Below, in pieces: positions 8,810 through 41,783 of a stretch of 64,000 nucleotides of DNA. The notes under the pieces were generated by a model, which was not told the origin of the DNA, searched no databases, and saw only the letters and a list, made by a program, of their open reading frames with translations. The first letter of the stretch is position 1. Every line of letters starts with the position of its first letter. The position numbers were made by a program, and so were the translations under genes. Origin of the DNA: an archaeon GW2011_AR10 (GTDB lineage: Archaea; Iainarchaeota; Iainarchaeia; Iainarchaeales; GW2011-AR10); the NCBI GenBank assembly GCA_000830275.1, contig CP010424.1:622782-686781 (forward strand), in the 5' to 3' direction.

Positions 8810-8821
8810 GAGTGAAAGGAA

Positions 8822-12831: not shown

Positions 12832-15800
12832 CTAATTTTTTTCTCTTCGAATGTAAACAAAGACCGCAATTAATGAAACAATGAAAAGTGCTAAAACAAC
12901 AGGGTTTTCTGGAAGCGATGGAAGGTTAAGCAGGCTCTTGTCGGTTTCCCCTACCTGCAGGTTAAGCACGTTGCCTGAAGCAGTTGAAGTTACCTCGTTG
13001 TTGGGGCCAACTCTTGCAGAAATGCCTTCGCGGAAAGCCTCAATCAAAGGCAGCAGCTGGGCGTTTTCAGCATACCACAAGCCTTTCTCCGGGTCATAAT
13101 AGAATGCCCCGTTCCTTCCCTGCGCTGAAGTAAGAACCTCTGGCTTCTGCCCGTCGAAGGAAACTGTTGGAACACCGTTTTCTGCAGCAAAGTCAAGCGT
13201 GTGCTTTTTGCCGTTCTCGTCAATGAATTCAAGGCCATTTGGAGTGGCTCTTGCAGTTCCAGCAAAGTCTTGAATCTCGCCTGTTTCCTTATCTATTACC
13301 CTCAAATGGTCCTTGCATGCTCCTGTTTCATCTCTTTCCGAGCTCAGCACATACCTTTTGGTCGGGGTTTCAAATACTTGGAAGGGGCCGAATTTTTTTA
13401 AGGAAGTATTGAATGCAGCAACCTTTGCTTGGTTCGCGGGACTATTGGGGTCGCCTTCCACTTGGAAGTCAAGAGCTGGTTCCTCGCACTGGTTTTCAGG
13501 GTTAGTGGAGGAAGTCAGGTCAGTGTCAAGGCCCCTAACATCGTTTTGTTCAAGTATGCCCTGCTCGTGGTGCCTTAACCAAATAAGGTAACAGCCGTCA
13601 GGCCTTGCAACAATCATTCCATTCTTGAACTGGATTGACTTAAGCGAGCCAACTTCCGGAATCCCATCATTAGAGCTTGAGAGCGCAACATCATTGTTTG
13701 CAAGTACATTTATTGTTGAAATGTTTCCTACAGCAATTTTTCTTGGAACTCCTTCAGCGACAATCCTGTCACCTAATGGCCTGATGTTGGGGTGCGTAGT
13801 GGTTATAACGGAATTCACCAACCCAAATGTTGAGGTTAAATTGTTTCCCCCAACCAAAGGCAAACCAGTCTGCTGCATCACTCCATCCTGCAGGCACGCC
13901 CGCGCTTCAGGATGTGTTATGAATGCCTCGCCCCTTGCATTCACCTGAATTGCAACATCAGCTGTTGGAGGCAAGCAGACAGTTGTCAATGTTCTTGGAA
14001 CTTTTTTAGCTGGAATGCTTAGCTCAAGGTCATCTCCGGCCAACCTTGCTGCATCCTCGTTCTCTACAATAGGCTTTCCATCAAAGAGTATCTTGCCGTT
14101 CTCGAAATCAAAGTCAAGGCCTTTCCCTGTTGTTTTGTCTTTCACTGTTTCCTTTCCCTCTGTTTTGTATTCGCCGGAACTCATCTCGCAGCCCGGTCCA
14201 CACCAGAAATAGAACAGCTTTCTTCCCTTCAGCTGGCCTGAGCTCTGACCTTGAATGCTCAAGCGTGCCTGAACAATGTTTTTTTCCTCGGAATCATTCA
14301 CAAACTTTTTGATGTCATTTCCGATTCCTTCAACCTGCTCTTTGACCAATGAGTCTTCACTGCTGCCGCTGAATGCACCGGTTATCTGCTCGTTGAGGTT
14401 GCCAATAAAATTGGAAACTTTTTCAGTTGAAAGCTCCACGTTTCCTTCATCGTCCCTCTCCTCCATTGGAGGAACAAGGTAATGCACGAAGTAGCCTTCC
14501 TCAACATCAACGCAGTCCTGAAGCTTTGGAGCGTAAAGGGTTTGAATTGCAACAGTGCTGAATGCTCCAGGCCAGAAAAAGGTTGCGTAAGCCAAGGTTT
14601 CAATGCCGCCAAGCACTCCACCAATGCCGCCTTCTTCAGGCAGGAATGGAGCAATTTTTTTTGCTGTGGCATAACCAGGCAAAGAGAACACTGCCTGCTT
14701 GCAGGTTTTTGGTTCCCCTTCGGGCTGCACGAATTCCTGGCCCCTGTCCCTTGCCTCGAATTCTTCCTGCTCGTTGCTCCAGGCATCATGCAAATCAATT
14801 CGTTCCCCTTCAATGTCCCCAGTGCTTCCCTTCAAGTCCATGTGGTGCGCGAAAGCAATCAGGGTTTGGCCTTTCTGCAAGGCATCCTCCGAGCGCGTGT
14901 CCTCAAGAATGTAGGCATCGAAAGGCCTGCCGACAACAAAGAAGGGGTTAAAGTCCTCCAAGTTGGCTGAATTCAATGTGACAAAACAGTCAACGCATTC
15001 ATTGGGGCCAGTCAAGTAAAACGCAAGGCTTTCGGTTTCATTCCTCAGTTCCCTTCCTGAGAGCTTGTTGTAAAAGTCCGCAACAGGATTGAATTTATCG
15101 CTTACTTCATCAAGCACAAGCTTCCATGGAAGCTTGTTTGCAACCTGCACAAACAAATCGCCTTGATCAGAACCCTCATTTGCAAAGAAGTCAATGTATG
15201 CTTCAAAGTAAAGCGGCTTGTCTTGGAGCAGGAAGTCAACCTCGCTCCAAGTGTCTGGCAGCTGGTAAAGTGATAGGTCCTCAAAGCCTGCTCCTTTTTT
15301 GCTCCACCAGTAGCCAAACGGGTAAACAGTCCACTTTGCACCGCCCTTGAACGAAAAATAGCTCCTTATTATTTCGTCTTCTTCTGCCGCAAGCTTGTCA
15401 AGCCAGCTCCAGTAGCGCCTTGAAACCCAGTTTCGTTCACGGAGAGTATTAAGCATTAAGTCAGTATTCACTTTTGACCTCAAAACGTTTGAACCAACCC
15501 TTGCGTTTGTCAATGCAGATGAAAGCTCTTCCGGAGTAAGCACTTTAGAAGGCCCCCAGTTTCCTTGAACAATTGTAGGGTTGCCGCCAATCCTGTTCTG
15601 AATTAACGGAATGCTTGCATCAGTGTAATGGATGTATTCGCCCATGTCGGTTTTTACCCAAGTATTGGCATAGCCTTTGGCCGCCCTTTCAAGGTTGCTG
15701 TAACTTAAGGCCCTAAACTCTGTTGTTGTGGCAGGGTCAAAGCCATAAAGTATGAGGTTTCCAAACTCGTCAGTTTCATAGGCGCTGCGGTACTTGTTTA

Positions 15801-17661
15801 TCTCAGCCGTAAAGTTCCTCCAGTTGCCAGAGTCAACGAATTTATCCAGAATTACGCGGAAGTTCCTGTGCTCTGAGAACAAGTCAAGAACATCGCCTGT
15901 GTTCACCTGCTTTACTCCCTTGTCATACAGGCCCATATTGACATGCCTGACAATCCATTCAGGAAGGTCGGCTCCCATTTGGTCATCCGCAGTTGTGAGG
16001 AACTTTGCAAAAGAACGGCCATAATCAACAAGGGCTTTTTTCCCTTCAGGGTGCGTTAATGGGTCAATTCCTTGGTCCCTTAGTTTGTTAAAAATATTTG
16101 AGTATACTTTCTCTGACTGTTCCACTTCGTGGAGGCCGCCCCTCCATATTGTCCTCAGGTCTTTCATGACGCGGACAAACTCTGCTTTCTTTTCAAGAGT
16201 GTCAATTGATTCAAGGAATCCGCCTTTCGCCTGCTGTTTTCCCCACCAGTCAAAGAACTCCTGGGTTTTAATAATTGGGTAGCCTGTGCCATCAGAGCTG
16301 CCGATTGTCATGCTCTGCCAGAAGTCACGCCAGCCGTACTTGTCAATTTTTGACTGCATCCTTGAAACCTTAAGGTCTCCAAGGAAAGAGCCAGGAGTTT
16401 CAAATGTTGCCCTGAACCTGTCAGCGTAATCTGTGAGTTTTCCTTTCAGGCCAGGCAAGAGGCCTCTTCTCGCATTCCAGCCGAACATTTTTTTTGCTGC
16501 ATAGCCAAGGCTCGGCCCGAAATTTGTTACAACCATTTCAGCGCTCAGCCACTGGTTAAAGTATTTGTCAAACATCGAGTAAGTTGTTATAATGCAGTCG
16601 TTGCTGATGCAGTTGGTGCCGAATTCTGCGTCAAACTCCTGTGCAAGAATCGAGTTGGGAAGCAACTCTGTTTCCAGTCGAGTTGCGGTTTTAATGTGGT
16701 TGGGAAAAGAACATATGCTGTTATCCCACACCATTCCAGCTGAAGTGCATGAAGCTTCATCTCTTGGGGTTTCAATGCACTCTCCTGTTACCTTGCTGTA
16801 AAAGTTTTTTGCTCCATCAGTGCACTGCTCCTGGGAAACTTCTTTCCAGAGCTCTTCCTGTCCTTCCTCAGTGAAAACCGCTGCTGCCAGAACTTCCTGC
16901 TCTTCTGATGTGAACTCTGGCTTTTCTGTTGAGTTTTCATCAGTGAACCAGCTCTTTATTTTGTCGTATCCGCTGCCGAAAGCTTCCTTGATTGGTTTAA
17001 AATCTGCAGCAATTCCTGAACCGGAATTTCTGTAAGTGAGGTTTTTTCCTGTAAGCCAGCAGTTCTGGTCGTAGTCCTTGCATCTCCCTGTACGCAGAGA
17101 ATCATCAAGCACAAGACCGAAAGCGAAAGGCCCCTTTATGTGCCTGTTCAAGTAATTGCTTATCTCCCAAGGATTAAATTTTTTGTTTGGCAAGTCGGCT
17201 TTTGCCGTGACGTTTTCGTCCTGCTGCGATTTCAGAATGATGTTGTTTTCTTTCAGCTCATCCCTGTCATCAATCTCGTTTTCTGTTTGCTGTGGAAGAG
17301 CATCACCGCTTATCTCTTCTCCAACAAAGCCGTCTTTCAGGAGGTTTAGTATGTTGTTGCTTTCAGTTGGTGTAAGAGAACGGGACTCGCAGACATAACC
17401 CCTGTTTGGGAAAGGCGAAGGTATCGGCACTATAGGAGAAGTTGCAGGAGGAACTGCAGGTATTATTGGAGGGGGTTGTGGCACAGCATCAGGCGTCGGA
17501 TCAAGCACTGTTGCATCTGCACCCTGAAATGCGGCAGAATTTTCGTTTTCAGTTGGATTTAAAGGTTCTGGTGCCTGTTCAGCGTAATAGTCCTGCGCGT
17601 TGGCAGGATAAGTGCTAAGCAGAATTATTGCAATCAAGAAAAGGCTTGGAAGTTTCCTCAC
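12832..17661 (-). CDS. Large secreted surface protein (1,609 aa) with N-terminal signal peptide and C-terminal transmembrane anchor
   Basis: N-terminus MRKLPSLFLIAIILLSTYPANAQ; C-terminus PENPVVLALFIVSLIAVFVYIRREKN. Plus-strand ORFs inside it are treated as frame shadows. Confidence 0.6.
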   Translation of the reverse strand: MRKLPSLFLIAIILLSTYPANAQDYYAEQAPEPLNPTENENSAAFQGADATVLDPTPDAVPQPPPIIPAVPPATSPIVPIPSPFPNRGYVCESRSLTPTESNNILNLLKDGFVGEEISGDALPQQTENEIDDRDELKENNIILKSQQDENVTAKADLPNKKFNPWEISNYLNRHIKGPFAFGLVLDDSLRTGRCKDYDQNCWLTGKNLTYRNSGSGIAADFKPIKEAFGSGYDKIKSWFTDENSTEKPEFTSEEQEVLAAAVFTEEGQEELWKEVSQEQCTDGAKNFYSKVTGECIETPRDEASCTSAGMVWDNSICSFPNHIKTATRLETELLPNSILAQEFDAEFGTNCISNDCIITTYSMFDKYFNQWLSAEMVVTNFGPSLGYAAKKMFGWNARRGLLPGLKGKLTDYADRFRATFETPGSFLGDLKVSRMQSKIDKYGWRDFWQSMTIGSSDGTGYPIIKTQEFFDWWGKQQAKGGFLESIDTLEKKAEFVRVMKDLRTIWRGGLHEVEQSEKVYSNIFNKLRDQGIDPLTHPEGKKALVDYGRSFAKFLTTADDQMGADLPEWIVRHVNMGLYDKGVKQVNTGDVLDLFSEHRNFRVILDKFVDSGNWRNFTAEINKYRSAYETDEFGNLILYGFDPATTTEFRALSYSNLERAAKGYANTWVKTDMGEYIHYTDASIPLIQNRIGGNPTIVQGNWGPSKVLTPEELSSALTNARVGSNVLRSKVNTDLMLNTLRERNWVSRRYWSWLDKLAAEEDEIIRSYFSFKGGAKWTVYPFGYWWSKKGAGFEDLSLYQLPDTWSEVDFLLQDKPLYFEAYIDFFANEGSDQGDLFVQVANKLPWKLVLDEVSDKFNPVADFYNKLSGRELRNETESLAFYLTGPNECVDCFVTLNSANLEDFNPFFVVGRPFDAYILEDTRSEDALQKGQTLIAFAHHMDLKGSTGDIEGERIDLHDAWSNEQEEFEARDRGQEFVQPEGEPKTCKQAVFSLPGYATAKKIAPFLPEEGGIGGVLGGIETLAYATFFWPGAFSTVAIQTLYAPKLQDCVDVEEGYFVHYLVPPMEERDDEGNVELSTEKVSNFIGNLNEQITGAFSGSSEDSLVKEQVEGIGNDIKKFVNDSEEKNIVQARLSIQGQSSGQLKGRKLFYFWCGPGCEMSSGEYKTEGKETVKDKTTGKGLDFDFENGKILFDGKPIVENEDAARLAGDDLELSIPAKKVPRTLTTVCLPPTADVAIQVNARGEAFITHPEARACLQDGVMQQTGLPLVGGNNLTSTFGLVNSVITTTHPNIRPLGDRIVAEGVPRKIAVGNISTINVLANNDVALSSSNDGIPEVGSLKSIQFKNGMIVARPDGCYLIWLRHHEQGILEQNDVRGLDTDLTSSTNPENQCEEPALDFQVEGDPNSPANQAKVAAFNTSLKKFGPFQVFETPTKRYVLSSERDETGACKDHLRVIDKETGEIQDFAGTARATPNGLEFIDENGKKHTLDFAAENGVPTVSFDGQKPEVLTSAQGRNGAFYYDPEKGLWYAENAQLLPLIEAFREGISARVGPNNEVTSTASGNVLNLQVGETDKSLLNLPSLPENPVVLALFIVSLIAVFVYIRREKN

Positions 17662-17842: not shown

Positions 17843-18385
17843 TTAAATTTCCGGCCAATAGTAAATGAATGCCAGAGTGCCGCTGATTATCCATTGAGCG
17901 AAAAAGAGCACGAATATGGAGGCAAGCAGTGTTACAATGAAAACCGTTAAGTAGAGCTTCAGTGCCCAGTGGAACTTGAACGACTTCTTGATTTTTTCGT
18001 GCAAGAACAGGCCTATGAACTCAAGCGGCAAAACAATGAAGGAAAGCACTAATGCAACAACAAGCAGCCTTACAAGCTGAATTAGCGCAATTAAGAGCAG
18101 CTCCAGAACAGGAGTCTGGAATTCAACTGGAGTTTCACCAAATGGATCGCTTTGAAGCAAGGGCAAAGCAGGCTGAAGATACAAAACTAATATTAATGAG
18201 AATATTAGTAAATATGTGGTTATGAATCCTGACTTGAACCAACTCCACTTGTACTTTCCGGCAATGGCCCTGCGCACTTTTGAAGCAAAAAAAACGAAAA
18301 TGAAAACAGGAACGGAGCTTATGAAGGAGCCTTTCAGCAAATCAATCAGGGAAAAAACGGTAACCGAAACAAGGTCCTGCACCAT
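17843..18385 (-). CDS. Hypothetical polytopic membrane protein
   Basis: 180 aa with four to five hydrophobic helices. Confidence 0.45.
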   Translation of the reverse strand: MVQDLVSVTVFSLIDLLKGSFISSVPVFIFVFFASKVRRAIAGKYKWSWFKSGFITTYLLIFSLILVLYLQPALPLLQSDPFGETPVEFQTPVLELLLIALIQLVRLLVVALVLSFIVLPLEFIGLFLHEKIKKSFKFHWALKLYLTVFIVTLLASIFVLFFAQWIISGTLAFIYYWPEI

Positions 18386-20588: not shown

Positions 20589-21374
20589 TTACCTGCACGC
20601 TGAAGAATCAAAGTGCTCAATGCCTGCTTCAATGCAGCACCACTCAGAACTCTTAAAGTAGGGAACAGAACCTACTTCTGTCGCATCCCACAAAACCAAA
20701 TCTGCCTGCGTTTCAAATGGCCTGAAAGTTATCTCGTCCTCTGCAACCATTGTTATTTTGGCTGAAGCCTGCGCTGTGTCGCCAACCCGGATAATAAGGT
20801 CTTTCAGGCTGTTGTTGATTGTGCCAAAGTCAGCATTTTCCCCAATGCTGCACAGCAAATCAGTTCTTGGAGGGTCATCAGCAACAAAGTTTGGAAACCT
20901 CCCTGTTCCAATGTTCTCAAAGTTTGTTTTGTGGAAAAAAATGAAGATGAATTTCTGCCTCACATCCTCTTGGTCTCTTGGAACAGAAAGATAGAAAATG
21001 TAATCAAAGTTGTCTCCAAGAGGAGCCATTATTGAATTGATGTCCTGCGCTAAAATCAGCATTGTTTTCTCTGTGAGGTAGCGCTTGTCGGCATAATCTT
21101 CCTTCACATAAGCAAGCAGCTGGTCAATTTCAACTTCACTACTTAAGCCGTAAATTGAGCTGTCTGGGTTTCTTGGAGTGCTGCTGTAAAGAATTGTTTT
21201 AAGGGCATCCGTTGCAAAATCAGAATTGTAGTTCTGCACTATCTGCGCTGAAACAGTGTTGCCGTATCCATTGGAGAAAGAGAAAAGGAAAACGCTGATT
21301 GAGGTAACTATCAGGAGAAAGTAAAGAGCATCTGTTACTGCTGCTTGGCCTCTGTTTTCCTTTAAGGCATCCAT
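20589..21374 (-). CDS. Pilin-like protein with archaeal class III signal peptide
   Basis: N-terminus MDALKENRGQAAVTDALYFLLIVTSISVFLF: charged residues, Gly, then a hydrophobic helix. Confidence 0.5.
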   Translation of the reverse strand: MDALKENRGQAAVTDALYFLLIVTSISVFLFSFSNGYGNTVSAQIVQNYNSDFATDALKTILYSSTPRNPDSSIYGLSSEVEIDQLLAYVKEDYADKRYLTEKTMLILAQDINSIMAPLGDNFDYIFYLSVPRDQEDVRQKFIFIFFHKTNFENIGTGRFPNFVADDPPRTDLLCSIGENADFGTINNSLKDLIIRVGDTAQASAKITMVAEDEITFRPFETQADLVLWDATEVGSVPYFKSSEWCCIEAGIEHFDSSACR

Positions 21375-21901
21375 GTAACCACCACCAAGTGCATTGGCTT
21401 AATAACCCTGTTGTCTTCAACTGCAATCGGGTAAATCCTTGCAACAATTTCTTTGTCGGCAAAAAAACGGTAAGCAAAGCTAGGGGAAGAAGAAATGTCG
21501 CTGTTAATTGCAGGGTCAATGTTGTGGCATGAGAACTCGTTGCCTGCTTCATCCAAGAAAAAGCCCACGTTGTATAGCCTTGCATCCTGGGCATTGTATT
21601 GCAGGCTGTATTGGTCTGTGGCAGTATAATAGTTTGTTATTCCCGCGCGGAATTTAAGGTTTGGAATGCTGAGTGTACTGCACAGCGCTTTGAAGTTCTC
21701 GTAGCCACTTATATAGCTTGTGCCTTTAAGGACTTTGGCAATTTTTATCACTTTGATGTCAGAATCGAACTTGGAGTTTTTATTGTCAAAGACACCGAAA
21801 GCGAAAGTAAAGGTTGAAAAAAACATTATCAGCGCGAAGAGCAGTGGAATCAGGGAAGGCAGGTCATCTCCAATCGGCCCCAAAAAACCTTTATTCAGCA
21901 A
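21362..21901 (-). CDS. Pilus-associated protein with N-terminal transmembrane helix
   Basis: N-terminus MLNKGFLGPIGDDLPSLIPLLFALIMFF; overlaps the downstream gene by 13 bp, so it belongs to the operon. Confidence 0.4.
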   Translation of the reverse strand: MLNKGFLGPIGDDLPSLIPLLFALIMFFSTFTFAFGVFDNKNSKFDSDIKVIKIAKVLKGTSYISGYENFKALCSTLSIPNLKFRAGITNYYTATDQYSLQYNAQDARLYNVGFFLDEAGNEFSCHNIDPAINSDISSSPSFAYRFFADKEIVARIYPIAVEDNRVIKPMHLVVVTWMP

Positions 21902-22587
21902 GTGAAACCAACCCCTGGGTAAACGCTTTCACCCACGCTTGATTTTATGGCATTGCATGTCGGGCCAACGCTGCATGGAAAAATGTAGAGGGAGCTTTGC
22001 CCCCTCTTGATTTCCTTAACTAACTGAATTGAATCCATTGGAACTCTGGCCTGAGGGTCAATGTAAACAGATTCCCCTGTGTCAGTGGCCAGTTCGCGGA
22101 GTGTTCCAATTCCCCCGTACTCGTCACCCAAATAGTCTTGGCTGAAAAGGGTTACTTCTGCTTTTGTTTCAAAGGATTTTGCTGCAATTGCTTTTGGAAT
22201 GTAGGAAGGGTCATTAATTGATTTCACGAGGTCGCGCCTCGGGAAAACCGAGAAAATAACTTTCGAGATTGTTTCAGGGCCTGAGGGAAGCTCTTTCTCA
22301 AACTGCGTTACACTTATTTTCATCACATAGTAGAATTCTTGGCCGCTTACATCAAGGGAGCGCGGGAATGTATGTGAATCAGAAAAACAGTAAGCGGGGG
22401 AAGAAGCAACACTGCTTGCTTTGGTGAGAACCCTGTCAAGCAACAGCTGTGCTTCCTTCACCTTGACTATGTCGATTAAGCCGAAAGTGAAGAAGGCAAC
22501 GATTGCAAAAATTGATACCACAAGTATCAAGAGATTCATTTTGCTTAAAATGAAGCCAAGCATTGTCAAACCCTCTTGTAAACGCAA
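21895..22587 (-). CDS. Pilus-associated protein with N-terminal transmembrane helix
   Basis: N-terminus ...MNLLILVVSIFAIVAFFTFGL; overlaps neighbours on both sides. Confidence 0.4.
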   Translation of the reverse strand: MRLQEGLTMLGFILSKMNLLILVVSIFAIVAFFTFGLIDIVKVKEAQLLLDRVLTKASSVASSPAYCFSDSHTFPRSLDVSGQEFYYVMKISVTQFEKELPSGPETISKVIFSVFPRRDLVKSINDPSYIPKAIAAKSFETKAEVTLFSQDYLGDEYGGIGTLRELATDTGESVYIDPQARVPMDSIQLVKEIKRGQSSLYIFPCSVGPTCNAIKSSVGESVYPGVGFTC

Positions 22588-23111
22588 ATCCTTGGCTGCG
22601 GGGAGAACAAGTGGAACTGCTTGATTAAAGTGTACTGGCCGGGCTCAATTGCTTCGTCTTTCTTCCATTCCTTTACTTTAAATTCTGTTGGCTGGTCGTC
22701 AAAGTCGTGGCAGACTGTTGCGGAAGGAAAATCCGTTGCAGAAGAAATGTTAAGACACTTTATTGAACTGAAGTCAGGCGAGGAAAACAAAAGCAGAGTG
22801 CATTCATAGCGCAACCCGCCACAATGAAAAGAGCAAGTGGCCCGGTCATCCCTGCTGACAATCCTCAGCGAGCTATCATTCTGGTTAAAGCAGGACGGCA
22901 TATCGTATGCAACAGTTTTTTTGCCTTCGCCTTTTGCAACTGTTTCAAGCGCAGTCTTCAATTCCTCCATGTTCTGGTCAATTTTGCCTTCACACTGCGC
23001 TCTCAGCAAAGTGCTCATTGCATTGAGCCCTACAACTATCACAAAAGTCATTGTTATTACTGCAATCAGCAGCTCGAAAGGGGCTGCTTCCTGGCCTTTC
23101 TGGCTGAGCAT
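22566..23111 (-). CDS. Pilin-like protein with archaeal class III signal peptide
   Basis: MLSQKGQEAAPFELLIAVITMTFVIVVGL; start chosen at the internal M because K-G-Q sits right before the hydrophobic helix. The track ORF extends to 23162. Confidence 0.55.
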   Translation of the reverse strand: MLSQKGQEAAPFELLIAVITMTFVIVVGLNAMSTLLRAQCEGKIDQNMEELKTALETVAKGEGKKTVAYDMPSCFNQNDSSLRIVSRDDRATCSFHCGGLRYECTLLLFSSPDFSSIKCLNISSATDFPSATVCHDFDDQPTEFKVKEWKKDEAIEPGQYTLIKQFHLFSPQPRICVYKRV

Positions 23112-23220
23112 GGTAACAAGAATACTGTAAAGAGATATATAAAGATTCTCAGAATCAATCAACAGGTATTGAGGGCAAGCATTATGAGCTGTTTGTGTTA
23201 CTGTAAAAAAACGCAGTGTT

Positions 23221-23388
23221 TTACTTATTGAAATACTTGGCCTGCTGCCTGCTCCAAACCTTATTCGGAGTTTTTTTCAGCCATTCAGCGTACATGTCGA
23301 TAAATTCCATGCGCTGCTGCCTGTTTCTCCTCATTTCCTCTTTAAGCTCTTTCAAATCTTTTTTTGTAAGCTTTAGCCCTTTTCCCAT
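23221..23388 (-). CDS. Small charged protein (55 aa) inside the pilus operon, not in the ORF track
   Basis: Hand translation: MGKGLKLTKKDLKELKEEMRRNRQQRMEFIDMYAEWLKKTPNKVWSRQQAKYFNK; ATG ends at 23388, TAA at 23221-23223. Confidence 0.3.
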   Translation of the reverse strand: MGKGLKLTKKDLKELKEEMRRNRQQRMEFIDMYAEWLKKTPNKVWSRQQAKYFNK

Positions 23389-23547
23389 AAAATTTTCTCC
23401 GCCTGCTTTTCAACCCTGAAATTTTGAAAGCTCTCTTTCAAAAACAATCCTGTTTCCCTTGAATTCCAGTTCCATAAATTAATCTGCCAACAAACTTAAT
23501 TTAACCATTCTCAAGCAAAAAAAGTATCCAAGTATTTGAAGTAGTAG

Positions 23548-23706
23548 TCAGTTTATGAGCGGCTGCCTTTTAACTATTTCCTGGCTCTTCTTGAACATTG
23601 GCTTAATCAAAGCAATCAGCAAAAGCGCTGCAATAATAAAAATAATGATTAGGTAAATTGAGCTCCATTCACCCTGCGCCCTTTCACCTAATTCAGGAAA
23701 TCCCAT
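23548..23706 (-). CDS. Small hydrophobic pilin-like protein (52 aa), not in the ORF track
   Basis: Hand translation: MGFPELGERAQGEWSSIYLIIIFIIAALLLIALIKPMFKKSQEIVKRQPLIN; short charged N-terminus, Gly, then one helix, like short Flp-type pilins. Confidence 0.4.
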   Translation of the reverse strand: MGFPELGERAQGEWSSIYLIIIFIIAALLLIALIKPMFKKSQEIVKRQPLIN

Positions 23707-23752
23707 ATAGAAAAAGAATGGAAAAAGAAGTATTTAATGATTGGTGTTAGGT

Positions 23753-24301
23753 TTAACTTGCCGGAATAATGCTTACAAGGCAAATCCTTTCAGTGTTTGA
23801 GGGGTCAAATATTGCTGTTCCACCGCCACAAAAGCTGTTGTAGCCGGAAAACACTGTGTCAAGCCTTGCTTCTAGGACGGTTTCCTCAACCCTGTTCGCG
23901 TTATCGCAGAGCACGTATAGCTTCTGCTGCTGGTCAGAGTTGCCGTTGTAGCGAATCCAAGAGCCTTGAGCAACTTCCTCATAGTTAGGGTTGCTTCCTG
24001 AAACAGTGTCAGAAATTAAAACGCAAAGCTGGTGCTCTCCAAGCGAACCAGTTTTTTCTGCAATTGTCCTTGACCTCAGGCTTGTGCCGTTCTTGAATGT
24101 TACTAATCCTGTTCTTTCAGGCGTGCCCAAATTGTTGATGAGTGTCTTAATTTTTGAGGACGCTTCCTCTGTGGGGTCGCCTTGGCTTGGGGGCGCAATC
24201 TGCGTTAAAATCTGCAGCAGAATTGTGAGAATGAATACTGCAACAATTGCTGCAATCAACAGCTTGAAAACGCTGAAAGCCTGCCCTCTCTCATTCAACA
24301 T
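23753..24301 (-). CDS. Pilin-like protein with archaeal class III signal peptide
   Basis: MLNERGQAFSVFKLLIAAIVAVFILTILLQIL. Confidence 0.6.
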   Translation of the reverse strand: MLNERGQAFSVFKLLIAAIVAVFILTILLQILTQIAPPSQGDPTEEASSKIKTLINNLGTPERTGLVTFKNGTSLRSRTIAEKTGSLGEHQLCVLISDTVSGSNPNYEEVAQGSWIRYNGNSDQQQKLYVLCDNANRVEETVLEARLDTVFSGYNSFCGGGTAIFDPSNTERICLVSIIPAS

Positions 24302-24366: not shown

Positions 24367-24813
24367 CTAAGGCGTAATTGGTTTAGAGAAAGAGAACTTG
24401 CAGCAGATTTCGCAGGTTGAATCGCAAAAGGAGGCAGGGTCAAGGTTTGTTGTGCACTGCGCGTAAAAGTTTGTTTCAATGCGGTAATTTACCAGTATTC
24501 TTTGCGAGTCAACAGTGAAAGAGGAACTGCTTGGAGCAAGAATTTCAACGCATTGCCCCTCTAATCCTGTTCTTCTTGCAAGAAAATCTTTAGTATAAAC
24601 TGTGCCTTTGTCGAAGAGGAGGTTTTCAACAACAAGAATGTCATTGTTTGGCTGCTGCACCGCGTTCTCTAATCCTTCAAGAAAACGCTCTTTGCTCACG
24701 TTTATTTTGAACTCCTCAAAGGAACGGATTGCACCGAGAATTATTAATAAAATCAGCAGCGCAACTATTGCGCCAATCATCATCTTGAACGGCTCAAACT
24801 GCCCTTTCTCCAT
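24367..24813 (-). CDS. Pilin-like protein with archaeal class III signal peptide
   Basis: MEKGQFEPFKMMIGAIVALLILLIILGAI; start chosen at the internal M (track start 24831). Confidence 0.6.
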   Translation of the reverse strand: MEKGQFEPFKMMIGAIVALLILLIILGAIRSFEEFKINVSKERFLEGLENAVQQPNNDILVVENLLFDKGTVYTKDFLARRTGLEGQCVEILAPSSSSFTVDSQRILVNYRIETNFYAQCTTNLDPASFCDSTCEICCKFSFSKPITP

Positions 24814-24852: not shown

Positions 24853-27210
24853 TTAAGCCAAAAATCCGCCGACGAGAATGTTGGAAATAATTATGCTTAA
24901 AACGAAAATTATAACTGAAATTGGGAAAAAGCGCGCAATGTTTATTCTCACCAGCAAATCGTTGTCCTCCTCTATTTTGGTGGTGAAGTAAGTCATTATG
25001 AGGAGAAGCTCCACAACGTAGATTGCAACGATGATTACGAACTGCGTTGGAGTAGCCATTCCAGCAACTGCTGCCGGGTCAATGAAGCTTCCAACGTTTA
25101 TGCCAGAAAACGTGTTTGGAATGCCTGCTCCTCCTGGAACATCAAGGTTGCTCAGATCAAGTTCCGTTGCAATATTGGAAGAAGCGATGGAGGAAAGGGT
25201 TATTATTACGATTTTCTGCAGGCTTGTTGTAATGCCCAAAACCATCGGCGCAATGAATAGGCTCATTGTCTTCATCATTCCTGTTACATCAGAAACCAAA
25301 ATCTTCAAATTGTTTGCAACCTTTTCCGCGTTGTCGAGCTGGATGCTTAACGCAATCATTGTCCTGGCAGCAACGTTCACCCCCAATTGCACTGAATCAA
25401 CAAGCAGCCTCACTGAACCGCTAATCAACGAGCTTGGAATGTTTTTCAATGAACCATAGTTTGGGTCAAAGAATGCCTGCTCTAATGGCATTGCAAGCAA
25501 GGCAATGTTGTCAAGCGTTTTCGAGAAAATCCTTTTCGATATTTTGAACTGTGGCAAAAAATCCATTGTGTGCTTTAATGCTTCCTCCACCGGCTTGTTT
25601 TCACCCATGCGGGAAGCAAGAATGTAGATTGAGTCCTTGAACTCTGACTCCATTTCAACAATTTCAAGCTGGGCTTTCCGCTTGTAAATGTTGTTGTAGT
25701 AGAGGTAAACAAACACTGAAAGTGAAACGGTTATGAGCAGGCCGAAAATGAAATTGTAGGGAGTAATATCGTTGGCCGGCTTCGTGAAAAATGCCTGTTC
25801 CTCGCTTTTCACGCGTTTCTCTGCTTCCTCAACAGGAAAACCCTGCGCAATCAGCTCATTGTAAAGCACTCCTGTGGGAATGTCAAAGTATTTCAATTGG
25901 TAGCCTGCTTTTGAAAGAACTTCAGTCCTTTGCTTGTCTAATGCAAGCAGCTGCGGCGTGCCTTCCTCAAGGCCCAAAGCATCGTAAAGAATTTTTGGCG
26001 GAACTCCTTGCTGTGAAACAAAAAAGGAAATTGAGCTTCCTGCAATCAACACAACAACAACCACGAAGAAAATGCTCACAAAGCCGTTGCCTAACCTCAT
26101 TGTGCCCTTCGGCGGCAAACCCGGAAAGTTGTCCTTTATTTCAGGCGCAACATACGTTGGTGGGCGCTTGCTTATAACGGAGAAAGCAAACCAAAGCGTA
26201 ACCAAAGGAATTATTATGTTGTAAATGGCAAACAAAACAATTGGGTTTGCAAGCGGTGCGCCGCTGAAAGAGCTCCCTACAGGAAGAATGATTATCAGAA
26301 TCAATGGAAGCAGCACCCCAACATAGAAGAGAATCATTGTTGGCTGGTTGAGGTCGCGAGCATACTGCTCCATTTTGTTTTTTATTGACTCAAGTATTTC
26401 ATCCATTGTTTGGTCAAGCAAAGCAAAACGCTTTGCTTCAGTTGTTTCAATCACTGAAGCGCGGATTCGCATCAACGCTTTCTTGAATTCATCGCTGAAT
26501 GCACCCCAGCGGTAAGCCAGTGCATCGCTTGCTTCTGCAACAGACGAGTAAACTCCCAACTGGACATCCCACAAAAGTTTTTTGAAGTCTTCAGCAATTT
26601 TGCCCCTGCCGTGCTCTGCTGCAAACTCAATGCTTTTCTCCAGGTTCGGGCTTAACTTCATTGACATAACCATGTAGCCGAGGATTTCAGGAACATAAGT
26701 CAAAGCACGCACCTGCTCTGCTCTTGCCTCCTCCAAGGGATAGTTTTGAACATAATATGTTGCAAAAACCACCATGCCAAGCAATGGGAGGAGAATGTAG
26801 ATTGGCGTAAGAAAGGTTGCCCCGCCAACGAATAGGTTTACAACCACTATTGCAGGGGACAGGAAAATAATTCCTGCAATTACTATTGCAGCAAGAAAGC
26901 TCACAATCAGCACGAACTTGTACGCTGCACCAAGCTCTTCCCCATTTAGCTCCCAACCCAGAAACTCCACTGCCTTCTTGTTCTGCTCTGAAAGCGCTTC
27001 ACCTTTTCCTAGTGAAGGAGCCATTGCGTGAATGCGCTTGCAGAACCTAACAAAAGGGTGCTGTTTTCTCCTTACAAGCGTTCTTTCCTCATTCTTGAAC
27101 TCGTCCTTGACCACGGCTATTTCCCTGTAAAGCTCTCCAATAGAGCTTGGCCCATCAAACAGCTTCTCTTCTTCTTCCTGCTCTCTTTCTTCCCTGTCTT
27201 TTCTCGCCAT
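24853..27210 (-). CDS. Type IV pilus platform membrane protein (FlaJ/TadC-like, two-domain, 785 aa)
   Basis: Polytopic; helical bundles alternate with two soluble regions, as in two-domain T2SSF platforms; sits directly downstream of the ATPase. Confidence 0.55.
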   Translation of the reverse strand: MARKDREEREQEEEEKLFDGPSSIGELYREIAVVKDEFKNEERTLVRRKQHPFVRFCKRIHAMAPSLGKGEALSEQNKKAVEFLGWELNGEELGAAYKFVLIVSFLAAIVIAGIIFLSPAIVVVNLFVGGATFLTPIYILLPLLGMVVFATYYVQNYPLEEARAEQVRALTYVPEILGYMVMSMKLSPNLEKSIEFAAEHGRGKIAEDFKKLLWDVQLGVYSSVAEASDALAYRWGAFSDEFKKALMRIRASVIETTEAKRFALLDQTMDEILESIKNKMEQYARDLNQPTMILFYVGVLLPLILIIILPVGSSFSGAPLANPIVLFAIYNIIIPLVTLWFAFSVISKRPPTYVAPEIKDNFPGLPPKGTMRLGNGFVSIFFVVVVVLIAGSSISFFVSQQGVPPKILYDALGLEEGTPQLLALDKQRTEVLSKAGYQLKYFDIPTGVLYNELIAQGFPVEEAEKRVKSEEQAFFTKPANDITPYNFIFGLLITVSLSVFVYLYYNNIYKRKAQLEIVEMESEFKDSIYILASRMGENKPVEEALKHTMDFLPQFKISKRIFSKTLDNIALLAMPLEQAFFDPNYGSLKNIPSSLISGSVRLLVDSVQLGVNVAARTMIALSIQLDNAEKVANNLKILVSDVTGMMKTMSLFIAPMVLGITTSLQKIVIITLSSIASSNIATELDLSNLDVPGGAGIPNTFSGINVGSFIDPAAVAGMATPTQFVIIVAIYVVELLLIMTYFTTKIEEDNDLLVRINIARFFPISVIIFVLSIIISNILVGGFLA

Positions 27211-27224
27211 AAAATGGTTTCACT

Positions 27225-29504
27225 TCAAGACTTTGTTTTGGCAATTATTCCCTTAATTAAGTGGTTTTTTACCCAGTTCTTCCACTCGCCCAGAACCTCT
27301 TCGTAGTCAACGGAACCGTGTTCTTCAAGCTGGTCCTCCTTCAATAGCATGAGCTTGTTGTTTGCAAGAACCGCGTTTTCTGCTTCAAGCAGAGAAGGAA
27401 TTGAATTCTTGTTCTTCATTTCCACCAAAAACTCTTTTGCCGAGCCATTCATTCTTATGCTCCTCCAGATTTCTTCAAGGTTGAGGCCGCTCATCTTGCT
27501 TATCTTTGAGAACATCTCGCTTTCCTTAAGGTTGTCTTCAAGCAGTTCAAGCTCGTCTTTTTTTGCGTCATAACTCATTAGGTCCAGCAAACCGCCCTCT
27601 CTTTCAGGATCCTCAATCCAGTGCTTTTTCACCTCTGTTATCTGGACAATTCTCCTGTTCCTCTGCAGTGACCCGGAAAACCTTATCGGCCTTGCAACCA
27701 CGACAACATCAGTTGCCTTAAACGAAGTGTTTGGAACATCCAAGTCATTCACTACCCTATCCCACACAGAGTAAGCGCTTTCACCGTGGATTGTTCCCAT
27801 CACAATGTTTCCCGCAGCACCAATTCTCATTGCCTCGTACAGAACCCTTGCTTCCTTGCTCCTCACTTCACCTATGATTAGGGCAGAATCTCCCAAACGA
27901 AGCGCTGTCCTCAAAGCTTCCTCTGGCGCAACCTCAGAGGAAGTGCCGCCAGCAGCAATAGGTGAACGCGTTTTAAGCCTCTGGATGTTGAAGCCTATGT
28001 TCTTCATGTAAGGAACTGGAAGTTCCAAGGTGTCTTCCTGCACAATTATTCTCGTGCTCTGGATAATTTCAAGGATTAGTGCCTGCATCAAAGAAGTTTT
28101 TCCGCTGCCCCTTGAACCAGTAACCAGCATTGTTGCCTGTGCGTCAACGAAAAAAGAAAGCAGGCCTGCTGAAAGAGGAGTTAAAAATTTCACGTCAACA
28201 AACTGGGGCAGCGTCCAAGGAGTAACCTTATGCAGCCTGAAAGCAAACGCGATTCCGCTCGGCGCAAGCGGCGGGCCAATGACTGCAACCCTTGTCTCCA
28301 TGTCAGGCAAATCAAAGTCCAGGACTGGATGAGCTTCATCAAATGGCCTGCCTGACATTGCACGCATTTTTGATACAAGCGAACTTGCCTCTCCTTCAGT
28401 GTAAAGAATGTTGGTTTCGCACTGGCCAAAGTCAGAGTGAATAACGTAAAGCGGCTTCTGCCCGATGGGAGAATCAATGAAAATGTCTGTGAGGTTCCTG
28501 TCAGAGAGCAGCAGTTCAAGGATTCCGTAGCCGACAGTGTACCTTGCAACAATCTGGCTTAACTCAATTATTTCATCGTTGCCAAGAGAAATATTGTTCT
28601 CTTTCGCGATGTCCTTGATTGTTGACTGGTAAACGCGCTCAAAGTACTTCCTGCTTTTCGCAAGCTCGCTTAAAGAGGTTTTTCCAGGCCTGTACGATGC
28701 AACGATTTCCCTTGTCTTGCTCAAAATGAAGTACTTGTCCGGGGGCAGGGAATACTCTGGGGGATTGACAATGTAAAGCTTCTGCGGCTTGTTCGGGTGC
28801 TTGAATATCTGCACTGTTGTATCCTTCACTTGGTATTCGTCCAGAAGCTCCAGCTTTTCCTCTTCTTCAAACAGCAGCCTTGAACCGATAAAGGAGGGTT
28901 TTACCTGCGCTTCAAAGAACGGCTTGTACATTTCTTTTGTGTCAGGAACTGTTTTCAGCTTCAAAAGAATCTGTTTGGCTTTCTGGACAAGCATTGTGCT
29001 GTCAAGGTTCTTCTTTATGTAAAGCAGGGTGCGAAGGTAAACATCAGAGTAATGCTCTTTGTCCTCAGAGCTAAAGCGCTCCCTTTCCTTGCTGATGGCG
29101 CGGAGCAGTTCAAGGTAAGAATAAATCGGGTCAAACAACAGGGTATCGTGAGTGATTTTAACAATAGTGTTGTGCCTTTCACCGAAGTCTTTTTCGCCCT
29201 CAATTTTTGCATCCCCTAAAAACTTGTAGCTCCACACGCTTTCAATCTCTAATTTTTGCGCAACCCTCGAAATTTCCTCCAGAAGCTTTTTCTGCTCCTC
29301 GCTGTAAACCCTTTCGTACACTTCAGCCAAAACAATGTCGTCAACTTCCACTTCTTGAAGCAGGCTGAAGACATGGTACCTGCATGCAGGGTCATCAGCG
29401 ATTGAGGAACTATAAACGCAGTCGCGACAGTCAAAAATCAGGTGCCTCTTGTTGCCTTCCTCTTTAACCGCCCAAGGGCCTACTTCAAAACCGCCGATTT
29501 TCAA
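27225..29504 (-). CDS. Type IV pilus assembly ATPase (FlaI/ArlI/PilB-like) with extended N-terminal domain
   Basis: Walker A TGSRGSGKTSLMQAL, Asp box IIVQEDTLEL, Walker B/His box ALIIGEVRSKEA...GTIHGESA; 759 aa, about 200 aa longer than typical FlaI. Confidence 0.8.
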   Translation of the reverse strand: MKIGGFEVGPWAVKEEGNKRHLIFDCRDCVYSSSIADDPACRYHVFSLLQEVEVDDIVLAEVYERVYSEEQKKLLEEISRVAQKLEIESVWSYKFLGDAKIEGEKDFGERHNTIVKITHDTLLFDPIYSYLELLRAISKERERFSSEDKEHYSDVYLRTLLYIKKNLDSTMLVQKAKQILLKLKTVPDTKEMYKPFFEAQVKPSFIGSRLLFEEEEKLELLDEYQVKDTTVQIFKHPNKPQKLYIVNPPEYSLPPDKYFILSKTREIVASYRPGKTSLSELAKSRKYFERVYQSTIKDIAKENNISLGNDEIIELSQIVARYTVGYGILELLLSDRNLTDIFIDSPIGQKPLYVIHSDFGQCETNILYTEGEASSLVSKMRAMSGRPFDEAHPVLDFDLPDMETRVAVIGPPLAPSGIAFAFRLHKVTPWTLPQFVDVKFLTPLSAGLLSFFVDAQATMLVTGSRGSGKTSLMQALILEIIQSTRIIVQEDTLELPVPYMKNIGFNIQRLKTRSPIAAGGTSSEVAPEEALRTALRLGDSALIIGEVRSKEARVLYEAMRIGAAGNIVMGTIHGESAYSVWDRVVNDLDVPNTSFKATDVVVVARPIRFSGSLQRNRRIVQITEVKKHWIEDPEREGGLLDLMSYDAKKDELELLEDNLKESEMFSKISKMSGLNLEEIWRSIRMNGSAKEFLVEMKNKNSIPSLLEAENAVLANNKLMLLKEDQLEEHGSVDYEEVLGEWKNWVKNHLIKGIIAKTKS

Positions 29505-31028: not shown

Positions 31029-31586
31029 ATGCACAAAAAATTTGAATTTCTGAGTAAAACTTTTTCAGAGAAAGAAATACTTAAAGCAGGAAAGTTTCTT
31101 TTGGGCTTAGCTGCATACTTCATTGCGCTGAGCTTTCTTGTTTCACTGGTGCCGCTGGAATTGGTTGAATTCTTTTTTGCATCAGTTTCACTTTTCTTTC
31201 TTGGGTTTTTTGGCTTTTCGGGAGAACTGGTTTTCACGGAACCAGTTATCATGCAATTGCAGGGCTTGGAGCAAGGAATTGCAATAACCTATCTTTGCAC
31301 TGGCCTGCTGGAACTGGTGCTGCTTGTTTCAGCTGTTGCCTCCTCGTTCGGCATTGAATGGAAAAAAAGAATTATTGGAGTTATTGCTGGCGCAATTGCA
31401 TTGGTTGCGTTCAACGTTTTCAGGATAGTTTCAAGCATTCTGATTATTCTTTGGTTTGGTTTGGAGGCAGGTGGCTTTTCGCATGACCTGTTGTTCAGGG
31501 TTTTTTTGTTTGCAACCGTTGCCGGCTACTATTTTGTGTGGTTTAACTGGGCCACAAGACTAAAAAAACTGAATTCCACCTTATAG
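31029..31586 (+). CDS. Small polytopic membrane protein, possible exosortase/archaeosortase-family
   Basis: Five to six helices; a helix-embedded Cys (ITYLCTGLLEL) and a downstream N-x-x-R (AFNVFRIV) resemble the conserved Cys and Arg of that family. Weak, motif-level only. Confidence 0.3.
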   Translation: MHKKFEFLSKTFSEKEILKAGKFLLGLAAYFIALSFLVSLVPLELVEFFFASVSLFFLGFFGFSGELVFTEPVIMQLQGLEQGIAITYLCTGLLELVLLVSAVASSFGIEWKKRIIGVIAGAIALVAFNVFRIVSSILIILWFGLEAGGFSHDLLFRVFLFATVAGYYFVWFNWATRLKKLNSTL

Positions 31587-32350: not shown

Positions 32351-32935
32351 GTGAATTTGTTGGAGAAGCGCTATAGAAACCTCGCCCTGTTAGTGGTTGC
32401 AGTAATAGTTTTAGCTTTGGCTTGGCTTCTTTTTTCCTCTGTTTCCTTTGAGTCAAAGCTCTCGGAAATTGATGCAGTGTGGAAAGAAAACGGCCTTAGC
32501 GTGGCTGGTTTTCCTTACCGAAATTCACAGGAATTTGACGCGCTCAGCCTGCAGGAAATTGAGTCACTGAAGGAAAGGCTTGGCAGGGTTGAGCCGGCAA
32601 GAATTGAATCAGTTGAACAGTTTGTGGCATTAAACAAAAAGCTGTTGGCTCTTGCAACCGCTAGGAAACTTTTGGAGGAAAAAGTTCTTGCAATCGAATC
32701 AACAGCAGGCATATGCAGTGAACTCAGCCTTCTTGATGAACTGCTAGAAGCCCAAAGGGAAGTGAACGAAAAATCAAAATCGTTTGTTGGAAGCTACAAT
32801 TTGTTCGTTGAGTCTTTTCCTAGGGAAGCCGAGACAGCATCGCTTCCACAAATTGAGGACAACGGCCTTGAACTGGAGTTCCTGCTCGCGCAACAGGAGG
32901 AAAATGCTGCAGCAGTCAGGGGTGAGTGCGCTTGA
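32351..32935 (+). CDS. Hypothetical membrane-anchored protein
   Basis: N-terminal transmembrane helix (LALLVVAVIVLALAWLLF) then a helical, Leu/Glu-rich region. Confidence 0.4.
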   Translation: MNLLEKRYRNLALLVVAVIVLALAWLLFSSVSFESKLSEIDAVWKENGLSVAGFPYRNSQEFDALSLQEIESLKERLGRVEPARIESVEQFVALNKKLLALATARKLLEEKVLAIESTAGICSELSLLDELLEAQREVNEKSKSFVGSYNLFVESFPREAETASLPQIEDNGLELEFLLAQQEENAAAVRGECA

Positions 32936-35900: not shown

Positions 35901-35976
35901 TTCCGCTTCTTCAACTGAAACAAGCAGCATCATCAGCAAAATGAGAAGCTGGTTGGCTGAGTGGAGGGAACAGTAG
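32926..35976 (+). CDS. Secreted multi-domain peptidoglycan hydrolase (amidase-3 plus lysozyme/glucosaminidase-like)
   Basis: Signal peptide; RlpA/3D-like segment (GVIATSFSCRKSNCVALPSRLALGKRVEVCSSKGCVTAVVADVGPW); amidase-3 motifs (VLIDVGHGGRDPGAV...ARVLMTRETDVYLSLSERVDIINREKPDVAISMHINSA); PKD-like segment (LLDASRSFDSDGTIEGYLW); C-terminal lysozyme-like region (GIDPTVALAFFREESTFGKFGAANRTKSIGNIRYYD). Confidence 0.65.
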   Translation: MRLKKKPLFLLLLLALLLTAANAEAQIAASEWNEGVIATSFSCRKSNCVALPSRLALGKRVEVCSSKGCVTAVVADVGPWCRQDDPYVLGNSRPFAEQRAGENLDDALKFPEAGEDTLDCRTNPKVGGPIPRKSNGAGIDLSVDVDRELGNNGKGIVSWRFIDDPTNSLLKLIDTARKSQQESIPNIFSASISSGAPLDFFRGKTVLIDVGHGGRDPGAVFTTKNGQTVNEKDMALSYSNKLKEVLESNGARVLMTRETDVYLSLSERVDIINREKPDVAISMHINSARLPVFRGTPLVFVACLFREEGKNGNGLVDIAEFASFNQLCQPNPAESHQGSVIVASNVTNKLSGFLTGMRVADATVLVRSNSPVVLFEVGFGSNKDELERMLTPLHQTTITLGLAAAIQDYLGKTKKAAVTGTELKEIELEEELDYVVLNFGDLSELERRGVPNPITSIASGTKFYKNGNEVDAFATSIVPDSAGSENKLAVYRLQQYSSYNFEVKLTGYFDNKVIGTGSFGPIPGKAKPELNANVKWNFAGEAAGNVAPTAVANDINAVKGKAVLLDASRSFDSDGTIEGYLWLDSSHPDESPANGKRVAEATVSAVFNTLGEHLVILYVTDDKGATGSETFYVNVAKEQEGIVEEGAPRIERLVLNYEYSLRIRYNEDGTIRETDVISLQLGKNQLISAAFYSPVEFYRAQLELWAFQEGITPSAASIERRMIIAADERGTNAHEAGTDILVPIDEGKIVSLDEIDYGKIGTGQWNSSVKEFVQKFKDNQYYFRVETRIEKESNGKKVGSQFVPVSISLFEELPRIESCSSIRECLARGSQIVSNSLLRAGEQAEDFEGLKCVQLEEGKQLDVVSAPCISAERIDEILAANDSPAAGTGKAFYDYGLKYGIDPTVALAFFREESTFGKFGAANRTKSIGNIRYYDTADPNDAAYCPTQRNDNGFCSYDSWEQGIEHFYKYINGPLYVAAGNNTLEEIVPIYISASSTETSSIISKMRSWLAEWREQ

Positions 35977-41691: not shown

Positions 41692-41783
41692 TTGGCTGGA
41701 GAAGGGAGCATCCTTAATATATTAGTTTTCACTTTTAATACTACTATATAATGCGTTGAATGCTTTGCGCGCGAGGCCTTTTC

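Follow-up and report, generated by a model that had tools for sequence, protein, structure and literature searches.

A conserved 52-residue protein of a type IV pilus-like operon in Iainarchaeota and Micrarchaeota is a candidate minimal pilin

In this study, we found that a small open reading frame (ORF) of 52 aa in the archaeon GW2011_AR10, here called s52, is a real gene under purifying selection, and that its position within a type IV pilus-like operon, its cleavage-type motif and its promoter are conserved. Judging from these features, the s52 protein is very probably a processed pilin-like component of a filament, whether major or minor. With less assurance, we consider it probable that s52 is the main filament subunit. 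We infer that s52 is cleaved, that it polymerizes or is incorporated into a filament and that it plays the major-subunit role.

The window, that is, the whole stretch of 64,000 nucleotides (64 kb) that was analyzed, has as its closest relatives metagenome-assembled genomes (MAGs) labelled Candidatus Iainarchaeum or Diapherotrites (DPANN archaea). An earlier sequence-only reading of the window had reported s52 and a second small ORF of 55 aa, here called s55; both were found on the minus strand at the coordinates and with the translations that it gave. They lie between pil182 and pil198, in a type IV pilus-like operon. [quoted passage not shown] Rfam and tRNA scans of the window gave no match, which rules out an RNA gene as the explanation of the region. 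The features are listed below in the direction of transcription, and a slash marks the cleavage site of a class III signal.

27225-29504, minus strand: T2SSE/FlaI-TadA-like ATPase of 759 aa, part of the assembly motor
24853-27210, minus strand: T2SSF-like platform protein of 785 aa, part of the assembly motor
24367-24813, minus strand: pil154, pilin-like, MEKG/QFEPFKMMIG, 148 aa from its ATG, co-transcribed with the platform gene
23753-24301, minus strand: pil182, pilin-like, class III signal MLNERG/QAFSVFKLLIAAIV, with its own promoter and terminator in most species
23731-23738, minus strand: TATA box of s52, ATTAAATA, which ends 24 nt before the ATG
23548-23706, minus strand: s52, gene of a putative minimal class III signal-peptide (type IV pilin-like) protein, ATG start, 52 aa, MGFPELGERAQGEWSSIYLIIIFIIAALLLIALIKPMFKKSQEIVKRQPLIN
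23517-23523, minus strand: run of seven T, archaeal terminator-like, 25-31 nt after the s52 stop
23423-23509, minus strand: 5' remnant of a DUF2204 nucleotidyltransferase gene, comprising the promoter region and the first 17 codons (MELEFKGNRIVFERELS; ATG at 23475)
23221-23388, minus strand: s55, small helical protein assigned to DUF8150 (PF26477) through its homologues, ATG start, 55 aa, MGKGLKLTKKDLKELKEEMRRNRQQRMEFIDMYAEWLKKTPNKVWSRQQAKYFNK
23136-23143, minus strand: TATA box of pil198, the first gene of the pil198-p230-p179-p261 unit
22566-23111, minus strand: pil198, pilin-like, class III signal MLSQKG/QEAAPFELLIAV
20589-22563, minus strand: p230, p179 and p261, conserved, overlapping or abutting genes of pilin-like or accessory proteins

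Four of the six larger proteins begin with the archaeal class III signal [KR]-G/Q followed by a hydrophobic helix. Their sites are MEKG/QFEPFKMMIG, NERG/QAFSVFKLLI, SQKG/QEAAPFELLI and, as the class III-type site of p261, NRG/QAAVTDALYF. pil198 has 181 aa when counted from the ATG at 23111, compared with its nominal 198 aa.

A word-indexed search found 13 homologues of s52 with 66-98% identity, all of them 51-59 aa long and none annotated. With a pattern scan that took one genome of each GTDB species, we located 68 s52 loci, nearly all Iainarchaeial, each with an intact ORF, and an exhaustive profile search of 1.84 billion protein representatives yielded a family of 93 clusters. The proteins of 92 of these clusters are 39-100 aa long; the exception is a repetitive protein of 219 aa at the significance limit. 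Family members are named 'hypothetical protein' in NCBI records. In the ungapped core of 35 codons, the nucleotide diversity at codon positions 1, 2 and 3 is 0.30, 0.12 and 0.57, respectively, and the pairwise dN/dS is about 0.16, indicating strong purifying selection. Thus, the balance of synonymous and nonsynonymous changes fits a coding sequence, as had been proposed, and conservation together with the codon-position pattern rules out a chance ORF. Searches of s52 against Pfam, NCBIfam and PADLOC gave nothing significant, the family profile matched none of the PDB sequences and no earlier description of this small protein was found in the searchable literature.

The gene order ATPase-platform-pil154-pil182 (one or two copies)-s52-pil198-p230-p179-p261 was found by tblastn with the window proteins in essentially all of the 68 loci. 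On the 3' side of p261, the syntenic loci contain two opposite-strand genes and a membrane protein. Two copies of s52 were never seen in one locus; the gene is single-copy and its conservation equals that of the ATPase gene. As an independent test against circularity, 80 metagenomic loci were retrieved through p179, not through s52, and 37 of them hold a pil198 homologue with enough upstream sequence. An ORF of the s52 family lies immediately upstream of pil198 in 34 of these 37 operons. In one further, rearranged locus s52 directly follows pil182, and the remaining two are split loci without the pil182 side. Conservation of both small ORFs at the same operon position had been suggested as a check on the sequence-only reading: s52 is conserved there (68 loci and 34 of the 37 independent operons), whereas s55 is not (0 of 68). 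Three contigs that carry the complete Iainarchaeial operon (L006, L009 and L041) are filed under Chloroflexi, Chloroflexota or Thaumarchaeota MAGs, which is likely due to mis-binning.

The distant branch of the s52 family belongs to Candidatus Micrarchaeota. The gene order of the pilus operon is also found in two Micrarchaeota loci (L076 and L077), in which the small gene sits between a pil182-like and a pil198-like gene; in L077 the ATPase and platform genes lie upstream. The Micrarchaeota members start with M-[KR]1-3-G followed by S-x-E-W-x-P-[IL]-Y, and their leaders are basic. These homologues (P0153-P0214, L075-L077) also have a C-terminal extension of about 25 residues, which is absent from the Iainarchaeial proteins. 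It is composed of an A/S/Q-rich stretch and a short hydrophobic segment with RR or KR at its end, and is reminiscent of a sorting or anchor signal.

The leader of s52 comprises residues 1-10 (MGFPELGERA), with predicted cleavage between Ala10 and Gln11. The predicted mature protein has 42 aa (family median, 43 aa), a mass of 4.85 kDa and a pI of 9.8. Among 69 s52 sequences, position -3 is Glu in 50, position -2 is Arg or Lys in 65, position -1 is Ala in 60, Gly in 6 and Cys in 3, and position +1 is Gln in 68. The Gln is followed by [S/G], Glu (67 of 69), Trp (67 of 69), [S/N], Ser, [V/I] and Tyr (68 of 69). Positions -3 to +8 are thus nearly invariant, and the part upstream of -3 varies freely in length (mostly 7-15 residues) and in composition; a variable leader joined to a near-invariant -3 to +8 segment is the pattern of a cleavage site. 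Ala at position -1 is no obstacle, because characterized archaeal pilins carry RA sites: the sites are RA/Q in EpdA, KG/Q in EpdB-E, RA/L in AapA/B and RA/V in PilA (PMC4371748, PMC4390842). EppA, the pilin-specific peptidase, requires Gln at position +1 (PMC4371748, PMC4390842). hhalign of s52 against the pil182 family placed GERAQ in register with NERGQ at a probability of only 25%, for which reason this match was set aside as proof of homology.

Positions +7 to +24 of s52 are uniformly hydrophobic; about 16 hydrophobic residues come after the conserved start, and the hydrophobic helix is put at 18-20 residues. Ile15, K25, M27 and F28 are invariant, and Ala16, Ala17 and P26 are nearly so. 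The C-terminal part consists of S31-Q32 and then a short lysine/arginine-rich tail, the charge of which is +4 in the window and +3 as the family median; the Iainarchaeial leader is neutral or acidic. The AF2 model of s52 is one continuous helix of residues 4-46 with a core pLDDT of 96, a result that does not discriminate between the hypotheses considered below. The sequence-only reading had described a short N-terminus, a Gly and a single helix. The helix agrees with the AF2 model, and the key small residue is Ala10 (Gly in some homologues), not Gly8 or Gly12. Further members of the family can be sought with the motif [KR]-[AG]/[QS]-x-[ED]-W-x-[SP]-[IVL]-Y ... K-P-[ML]-F. We rejected the idea that s52 is a Sec signal peptide that releases an 18-aa peptide: s52 lacks an A-x-A site, has a long and highly conserved hydrophobic stretch and carries an invariant Pro one residue past the would-be cut. 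A Pro just after the cut is unfavorable for signal peptidase I.

A TATA box with the consensus TTTAAATA was matched in 61 of the 69 s52 loci, and in 48 of these 61 the distance between its end and the ATG is 22-26 nt. This spacing places the transcription start of s52 at or just before the ATG, so the mRNA would be leaderless or have a very short leader. A run of five or more T within 40 nt after the stop was found for pil182 (60%), p261 (51%) and s52 (49%), compared with a background of 17% and with 3-20% for the other genes. Because the s52 sites served to build the promoter matrix, the scores of s52 itself are circular. Promoter scores exceed the 95th percentile of the background for pil182 in 84% and for pil198 in 53% of the loci, and those of platform, pil154, p230, p179 and p261 are at or near the background rate (0-13% of the loci). 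The pattern of promoters and terminators points to four likely transcription units, namely ATPase-platform-pil154, pil182, s52 and pil198-p230-p179-p261. The s52 mRNA is probably monocistronic, and s52 is one of only two pilins in the operon, the other being pil182, that have a private promoter and terminator.

We propose that s52 is the precursor of a minimal type IV pilin-like protein in a DPANN-specific type IV filament system. s52 would be transcribed from its own TATA promoter into a leaderless or near-leaderless mRNA, and a class III (prepilin) signal peptidase would remove the leader between Ala10 and Gln11. The putative site is of the EppA type, with Gln at +1, and would be common in type to the four larger operon pilins. 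The mature protein of about 42 residues would comprise the QxEWxSxY start, the hydrophobic helix, K-P-M-F and the basic tail; the adjacent ATPase and platform protein would extract it from the membrane and polymerize it through its helix into a filament. s52 may then form a helix-only filament body, as EpdE does in Methanococcus and Flp in Tad pili, and the larger pilins may be minor, tip or adhesin subunits. Since s52 is the smallest and most conserved pilin and has a private promoter and terminator, it is the most likely body subunit.

Three points count against the pilin reading: the charges of the cationic tail and the leader, the lack of a peptidase gene in the window and the traits of pil182. 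No prepilin peptidase was detected in the 64-kb window by a GxGD motif search or by Pfam on the membrane ORFs, and no peptidase A24 gene was seen there. The motor that would use s52 is assigned by synteny only, because a second ATPase/platform set lies 14 kb from the main operon. This second type IV filament motor (6682-9736, plus strand) comprises a T2SSE ATPase of 445 aa and, downstream of it, a T2SSF platform that is divided between two genes (267 and 304 aa), an arrangement that is Epd/Tad-like. A small pilin ORF was searched for beside the second set and none was found.

The traits of pil182 allow for a different reading, which we consider rather unlikely: s52 is processed and remains low-copy, and the filament body is formed by pil182 and its tandem paralogues. 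s52 would then be, for example, a helix-only primer, a base or spacer subunit, or a co-polymerizing partner of pil182. The promoter (84% of the loci) and terminator (60%) of pil182 are at least as frequent as those of s52, pil182 is only 29-50% identical between species and it is tandemly duplicated in seven loci (L002, L016, L021, L022, L046, L049 and L065). In addition, the contigs of 17 of the 68 species end inside or beside pil182, less than 0.9 kb upstream of s52 (L001, L003, L005, L008, L010, L012, L014, L015, L020, L026, L036, L039, L040, L045, L058, L063 and L067), as would be expected of a strain-variable exposed protein; only 5 of the 68 end within 1 kb downstream of s52. The pil182 region thus seems to be strain-variable or repetitive enough to break assemblies. 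An independent promoter and terminator, duplication and assembly breaks are traits expected of an exposed major pilin. Against a low-copy role, s52 is a single-copy gene, its conservation matches that of the ATPase, and a private strong promoter would be unusual for a low-copy minor pilin. The major subunit of other type IV filaments is usually the pilin that is smallest and most conserved; GspG, ComGC and Flp are examples. EpdE is likewise a small major pilin (PMC4371748).

The charges of s52 bear on another, improbable reading, in which s52 is not cleaved and stays in the membrane as a bitopic accessory of the assembly machine, with its N-terminus outside and its cationic C-terminus in the cytoplasm. 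The tail carries +3 to +4, and the leader and the N-terminal segment are neutral to negative in Iainarchaeota; by the positive-inside rule, a positive tail with a neutral or acidic leader favors the N-out/C-in orientation, which is opposite to that of a pilin. Furthermore, no recognized pilin family matches s52, and K-P-M-F directly after the helix is a possible cytoplasmic contact site, through which such an accessory could contact the platform protein or the ATPase. However, the near-invariant -3 to +8 segment after an unconserved upstream part is the pattern of a cleavage site, and the site is identical in type to those of four neighboring pilins. The Micrarchaeota homologues, moreover, have the classic short basic leader M-K-R-G, which favors N-in.

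If s52 is the minimal pilin that we propose, a bolder extension can be formulated, which we regard as a long shot: a thin filament of the helix-only s52 pilin of about 4.8 kDa, the smallest archaeal pilin, would be DPANN-wide, and its Lys/Arg tail would give it a cationic surface. If this is true, a cationic filament could help these nucleotide-auxotrophic symbionts to hold on to the envelopes of their hosts or to capture nucleic acids, and an s52 lineage separate from EpdE would bear on the origin of Flp/Tad-type pilins.

The other small ORF, s55, had been taken for a second member of the pilus operon, and this claim did not hold. s55 has 110 homologues with up to 96% identity, all of which have a precomputed PF26477/DUF8150 match, and by these matches s55 is assigned to DUF8150. 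DUF8150 is absent from all of the 68 syntenic pilus loci, so s55 is not a pilus component; it belongs to a pair of a transferase and DUF8150. In each of four independent genomes examined, the DUF8150 gene directly follows a transferase gene of about 200 aa, in a context unrelated to pili. It usually overlaps the transferase gene or lies about 10 nt downstream of it. These transferase genes are 50-70% identical to one another, and the two that were scanned against Pfam just reach the threshold of the DUF2204 nucleotidyltransferase. Two of the four contexts are islands with many PIN, Fic, PemK and RHH genes. s55 is 60-96% identical to the DUF8150 members that directly follow a transferase gene.

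Remains of the transferase are present in the window. In addition to the 5' remnant listed above, the last ~15-26 codons of the gene form a 3' remnant that is fused out of frame. Alignment by tblastn and blastn with the intact genes of L069 and L072 placed the junction of the internal deletion at ~23418-23423 and the gap at ~514 nt, and the window flanks are 80-81% identical to L069 on both sides of this gap. Two contigs with 99.6% identity share the deletion, and a strain with 98.8% identity (L080) runs into an intact transferase exactly where the window homology stops. Judging from these alignments, the stretch between the s52 terminator and the pil198 promoter received a transferase-DUF8150 module in this species only, and the strain of the window lost the transferase from the inserted module and left s55 behind. 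That s55 is a functional part of the pilus operon has next to no probability: its position between s52 and pil198 is limited to the window and two near-identical contigs, and against it stand the 68 of 68 loci that lack it, its pairing with the transferase in four unrelated genomes, the two transferase ends that the window keeps around the deletion and the intact gene of the sister strain.

The s55 ORF is intact, and its conservation and codon-position pattern led us to reject a chance ORF. Its AF2 model consists of two helices. The s55 family profile gave no match in PDB, a Foldseek search of PDB with the s55 model came back empty and PADLOC gave no significant match. No earlier description of DUF8150 was found in the searchable literature. 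The survival of s55 after the loss of its partner would fit an antitoxin-like role, although this is speculation.

Several other observations were made on the ATPase gene and its surroundings. The ATPase of several species is indicated to hold an intein at one conserved site: it matches as two fragments (query 1-493 and 487-751) about 1.5 kb apart in L007, L013, L018 and L043 of Iainarchaeota and in L076 of Micrarchaeota, and the L076 gene has Intein_splicing and LAGLIDADG matches. An exosortase/archaeosortase family protein (31029-31586, plus strand; TIGR04178, 39.7 bits compared with a cut-off of 23) is encoded 1.5 kb from the pilus ATPase. A protein of 1016 aa (32926-35976, plus strand) has N-acetylmuramoyl-L-alanine amidase (E = 8e-34), PKD and glucosaminidase-like domains and is thus a murein hydrolase; its presence in an archaeon hints at bacterial targets. 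Giant ORFs of 2842, 2669, >1041 and 1609 aa lie at 41760-50288, 52112-60121 and 60876-64000 on the plus strand and at 12832-17661 on the minus strand, respectively. The first three share an N-terminal motif (..YY.L.D..D.KGIPV..), and the giant ORFs probably encode DPANN surface proteins. Between two of the giant genes, a protein of 490 aa (50335-51807, plus strand) starts with MTGIKGFTLFTALVAFILIV, which looks like a bacterial-style prepilin site (G/FTL). The conserved neighbor tm180 (17843-18385) gave no family match.

DPANN archaea live in attachment to hosts, a contact for which type IV filaments are prime candidates, but their pilins have been difficult to identify. s52 belongs to a family of small proteins without annotation, which is found at a fixed position in almost every copy of this operon in Iainarchaeota and Micrarchaeota. 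It therefore offers a concrete candidate for the filament subunit of two DPANN phyla and a target for proteomics and cryo-EM. For some ATPases of nanoarchaea, no cognate pilin was found in earlier censuses (PMC4858521). A core component of this kind is missed by gene callers and by ORF tracks that have a floor of 60 aa. The result for s55 is corrective, in that a decaying inserted module should not be taken for a pilus gene.

The best functional analogues of s52 would be EpdE and Flp, of which EpdE, processed by EppA, is the closer. s52 has the features of archaeal class III proteins, namely a short leader with [KR]-[A/G], a helix of about 20 residues and an association with an ATPase and a platform protein. 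EpdE (MMP1685), of the Epd pilus of Methanococcus maripaludis, shares with s52 an archaeal host and a class III [KR]-[G/A] site followed by Gln at +1. Each is very small when mature and lacks a globular domain, as predicted in the case of s52, and each is accompanied by several larger minor pilins with the same site. The mature form of EpdE is 6.4 kDa (PMC4390842), and the protein lacks a globular domain, like Tad pilins (preprint 10.64898/2026.04.22.720090). However, there is no detectable sequence relationship between the two, and mature s52 has a median of 43 aa compared with about 60 in EpdE. Unlike EpdE, s52 has a cationic tail and no N-glycosylation sequon. s52 is encoded inside its operon whereas EpdE is encoded at a separate locus, and the platform is a single 785-aa protein in the s52 operon and the product of two genes in the Epd system. 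PF04021 (Class_IIIsignal) gave no match at E ≤ 10 for 14 plus 30 s52 members, and of its motif Q-x-S-x-E-x-x-x-L only Q1 and L/M9 coincide with Q-[SG]-E-W-[SN]-S-[VI]-Y-[LM] of s52. With no profile match and different motifs, we rejected membership of s52 in the Class_IIIsignal/EpdE family.

Flp/Fap (PF04964) of bacterial Tad pili and, by prediction, s52 are helix-only mature pilins of 40-50 residues, and both are encoded beside larger pilins or pseudopilins (TadE/TadF in the case of Flp), an ATPase and a platform protein. They differ in host, which is archaeal for s52 and bacterial for Flp, and in the site: the Flp motif G/XXXXEY is absent from s52, which has [KR]A/Q-x-E-W. PF04964 did not match s52 of the window or its close members, and matched one of 30 distant relatives at E = 0.069. 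No secretin (RcpA-type) or TadZ-like gene is present in the s52 operon, where the single 785-aa platform protein takes the place of TadB and TadC. With no PF04964 match, no Flp motif and no Tad components, membership of s52 in the Flp family was also rejected. The sequence-only reading had proposed a short Flp-type pilin. Of this proposal, the short pilin precursor stands at the level of sequence and synteny, through the site, the helix, the position, the promoter and selection, and the Flp type does not, for want of both the PF04964 match and the motif.

ComGC and GspG are, like s52, the small and most conserved subunits of their pilin sets, but s52 has neither their globular part nor their G/F-T-L-x-E site. 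Ten of 30 Micrarchaeota s52 members have sub-threshold matches to the ComGC major-pilin model and four of 30 to GspG, over the N-terminal helix; the best of them has E = 0.002, and the scores are about 13-20 bits compared with a cut-off of 75. Some Micrarchaeota members are named ComGC or FimT by JGI. Type IV pilins without a globular domain are an established concept, to which the s52 family would add.
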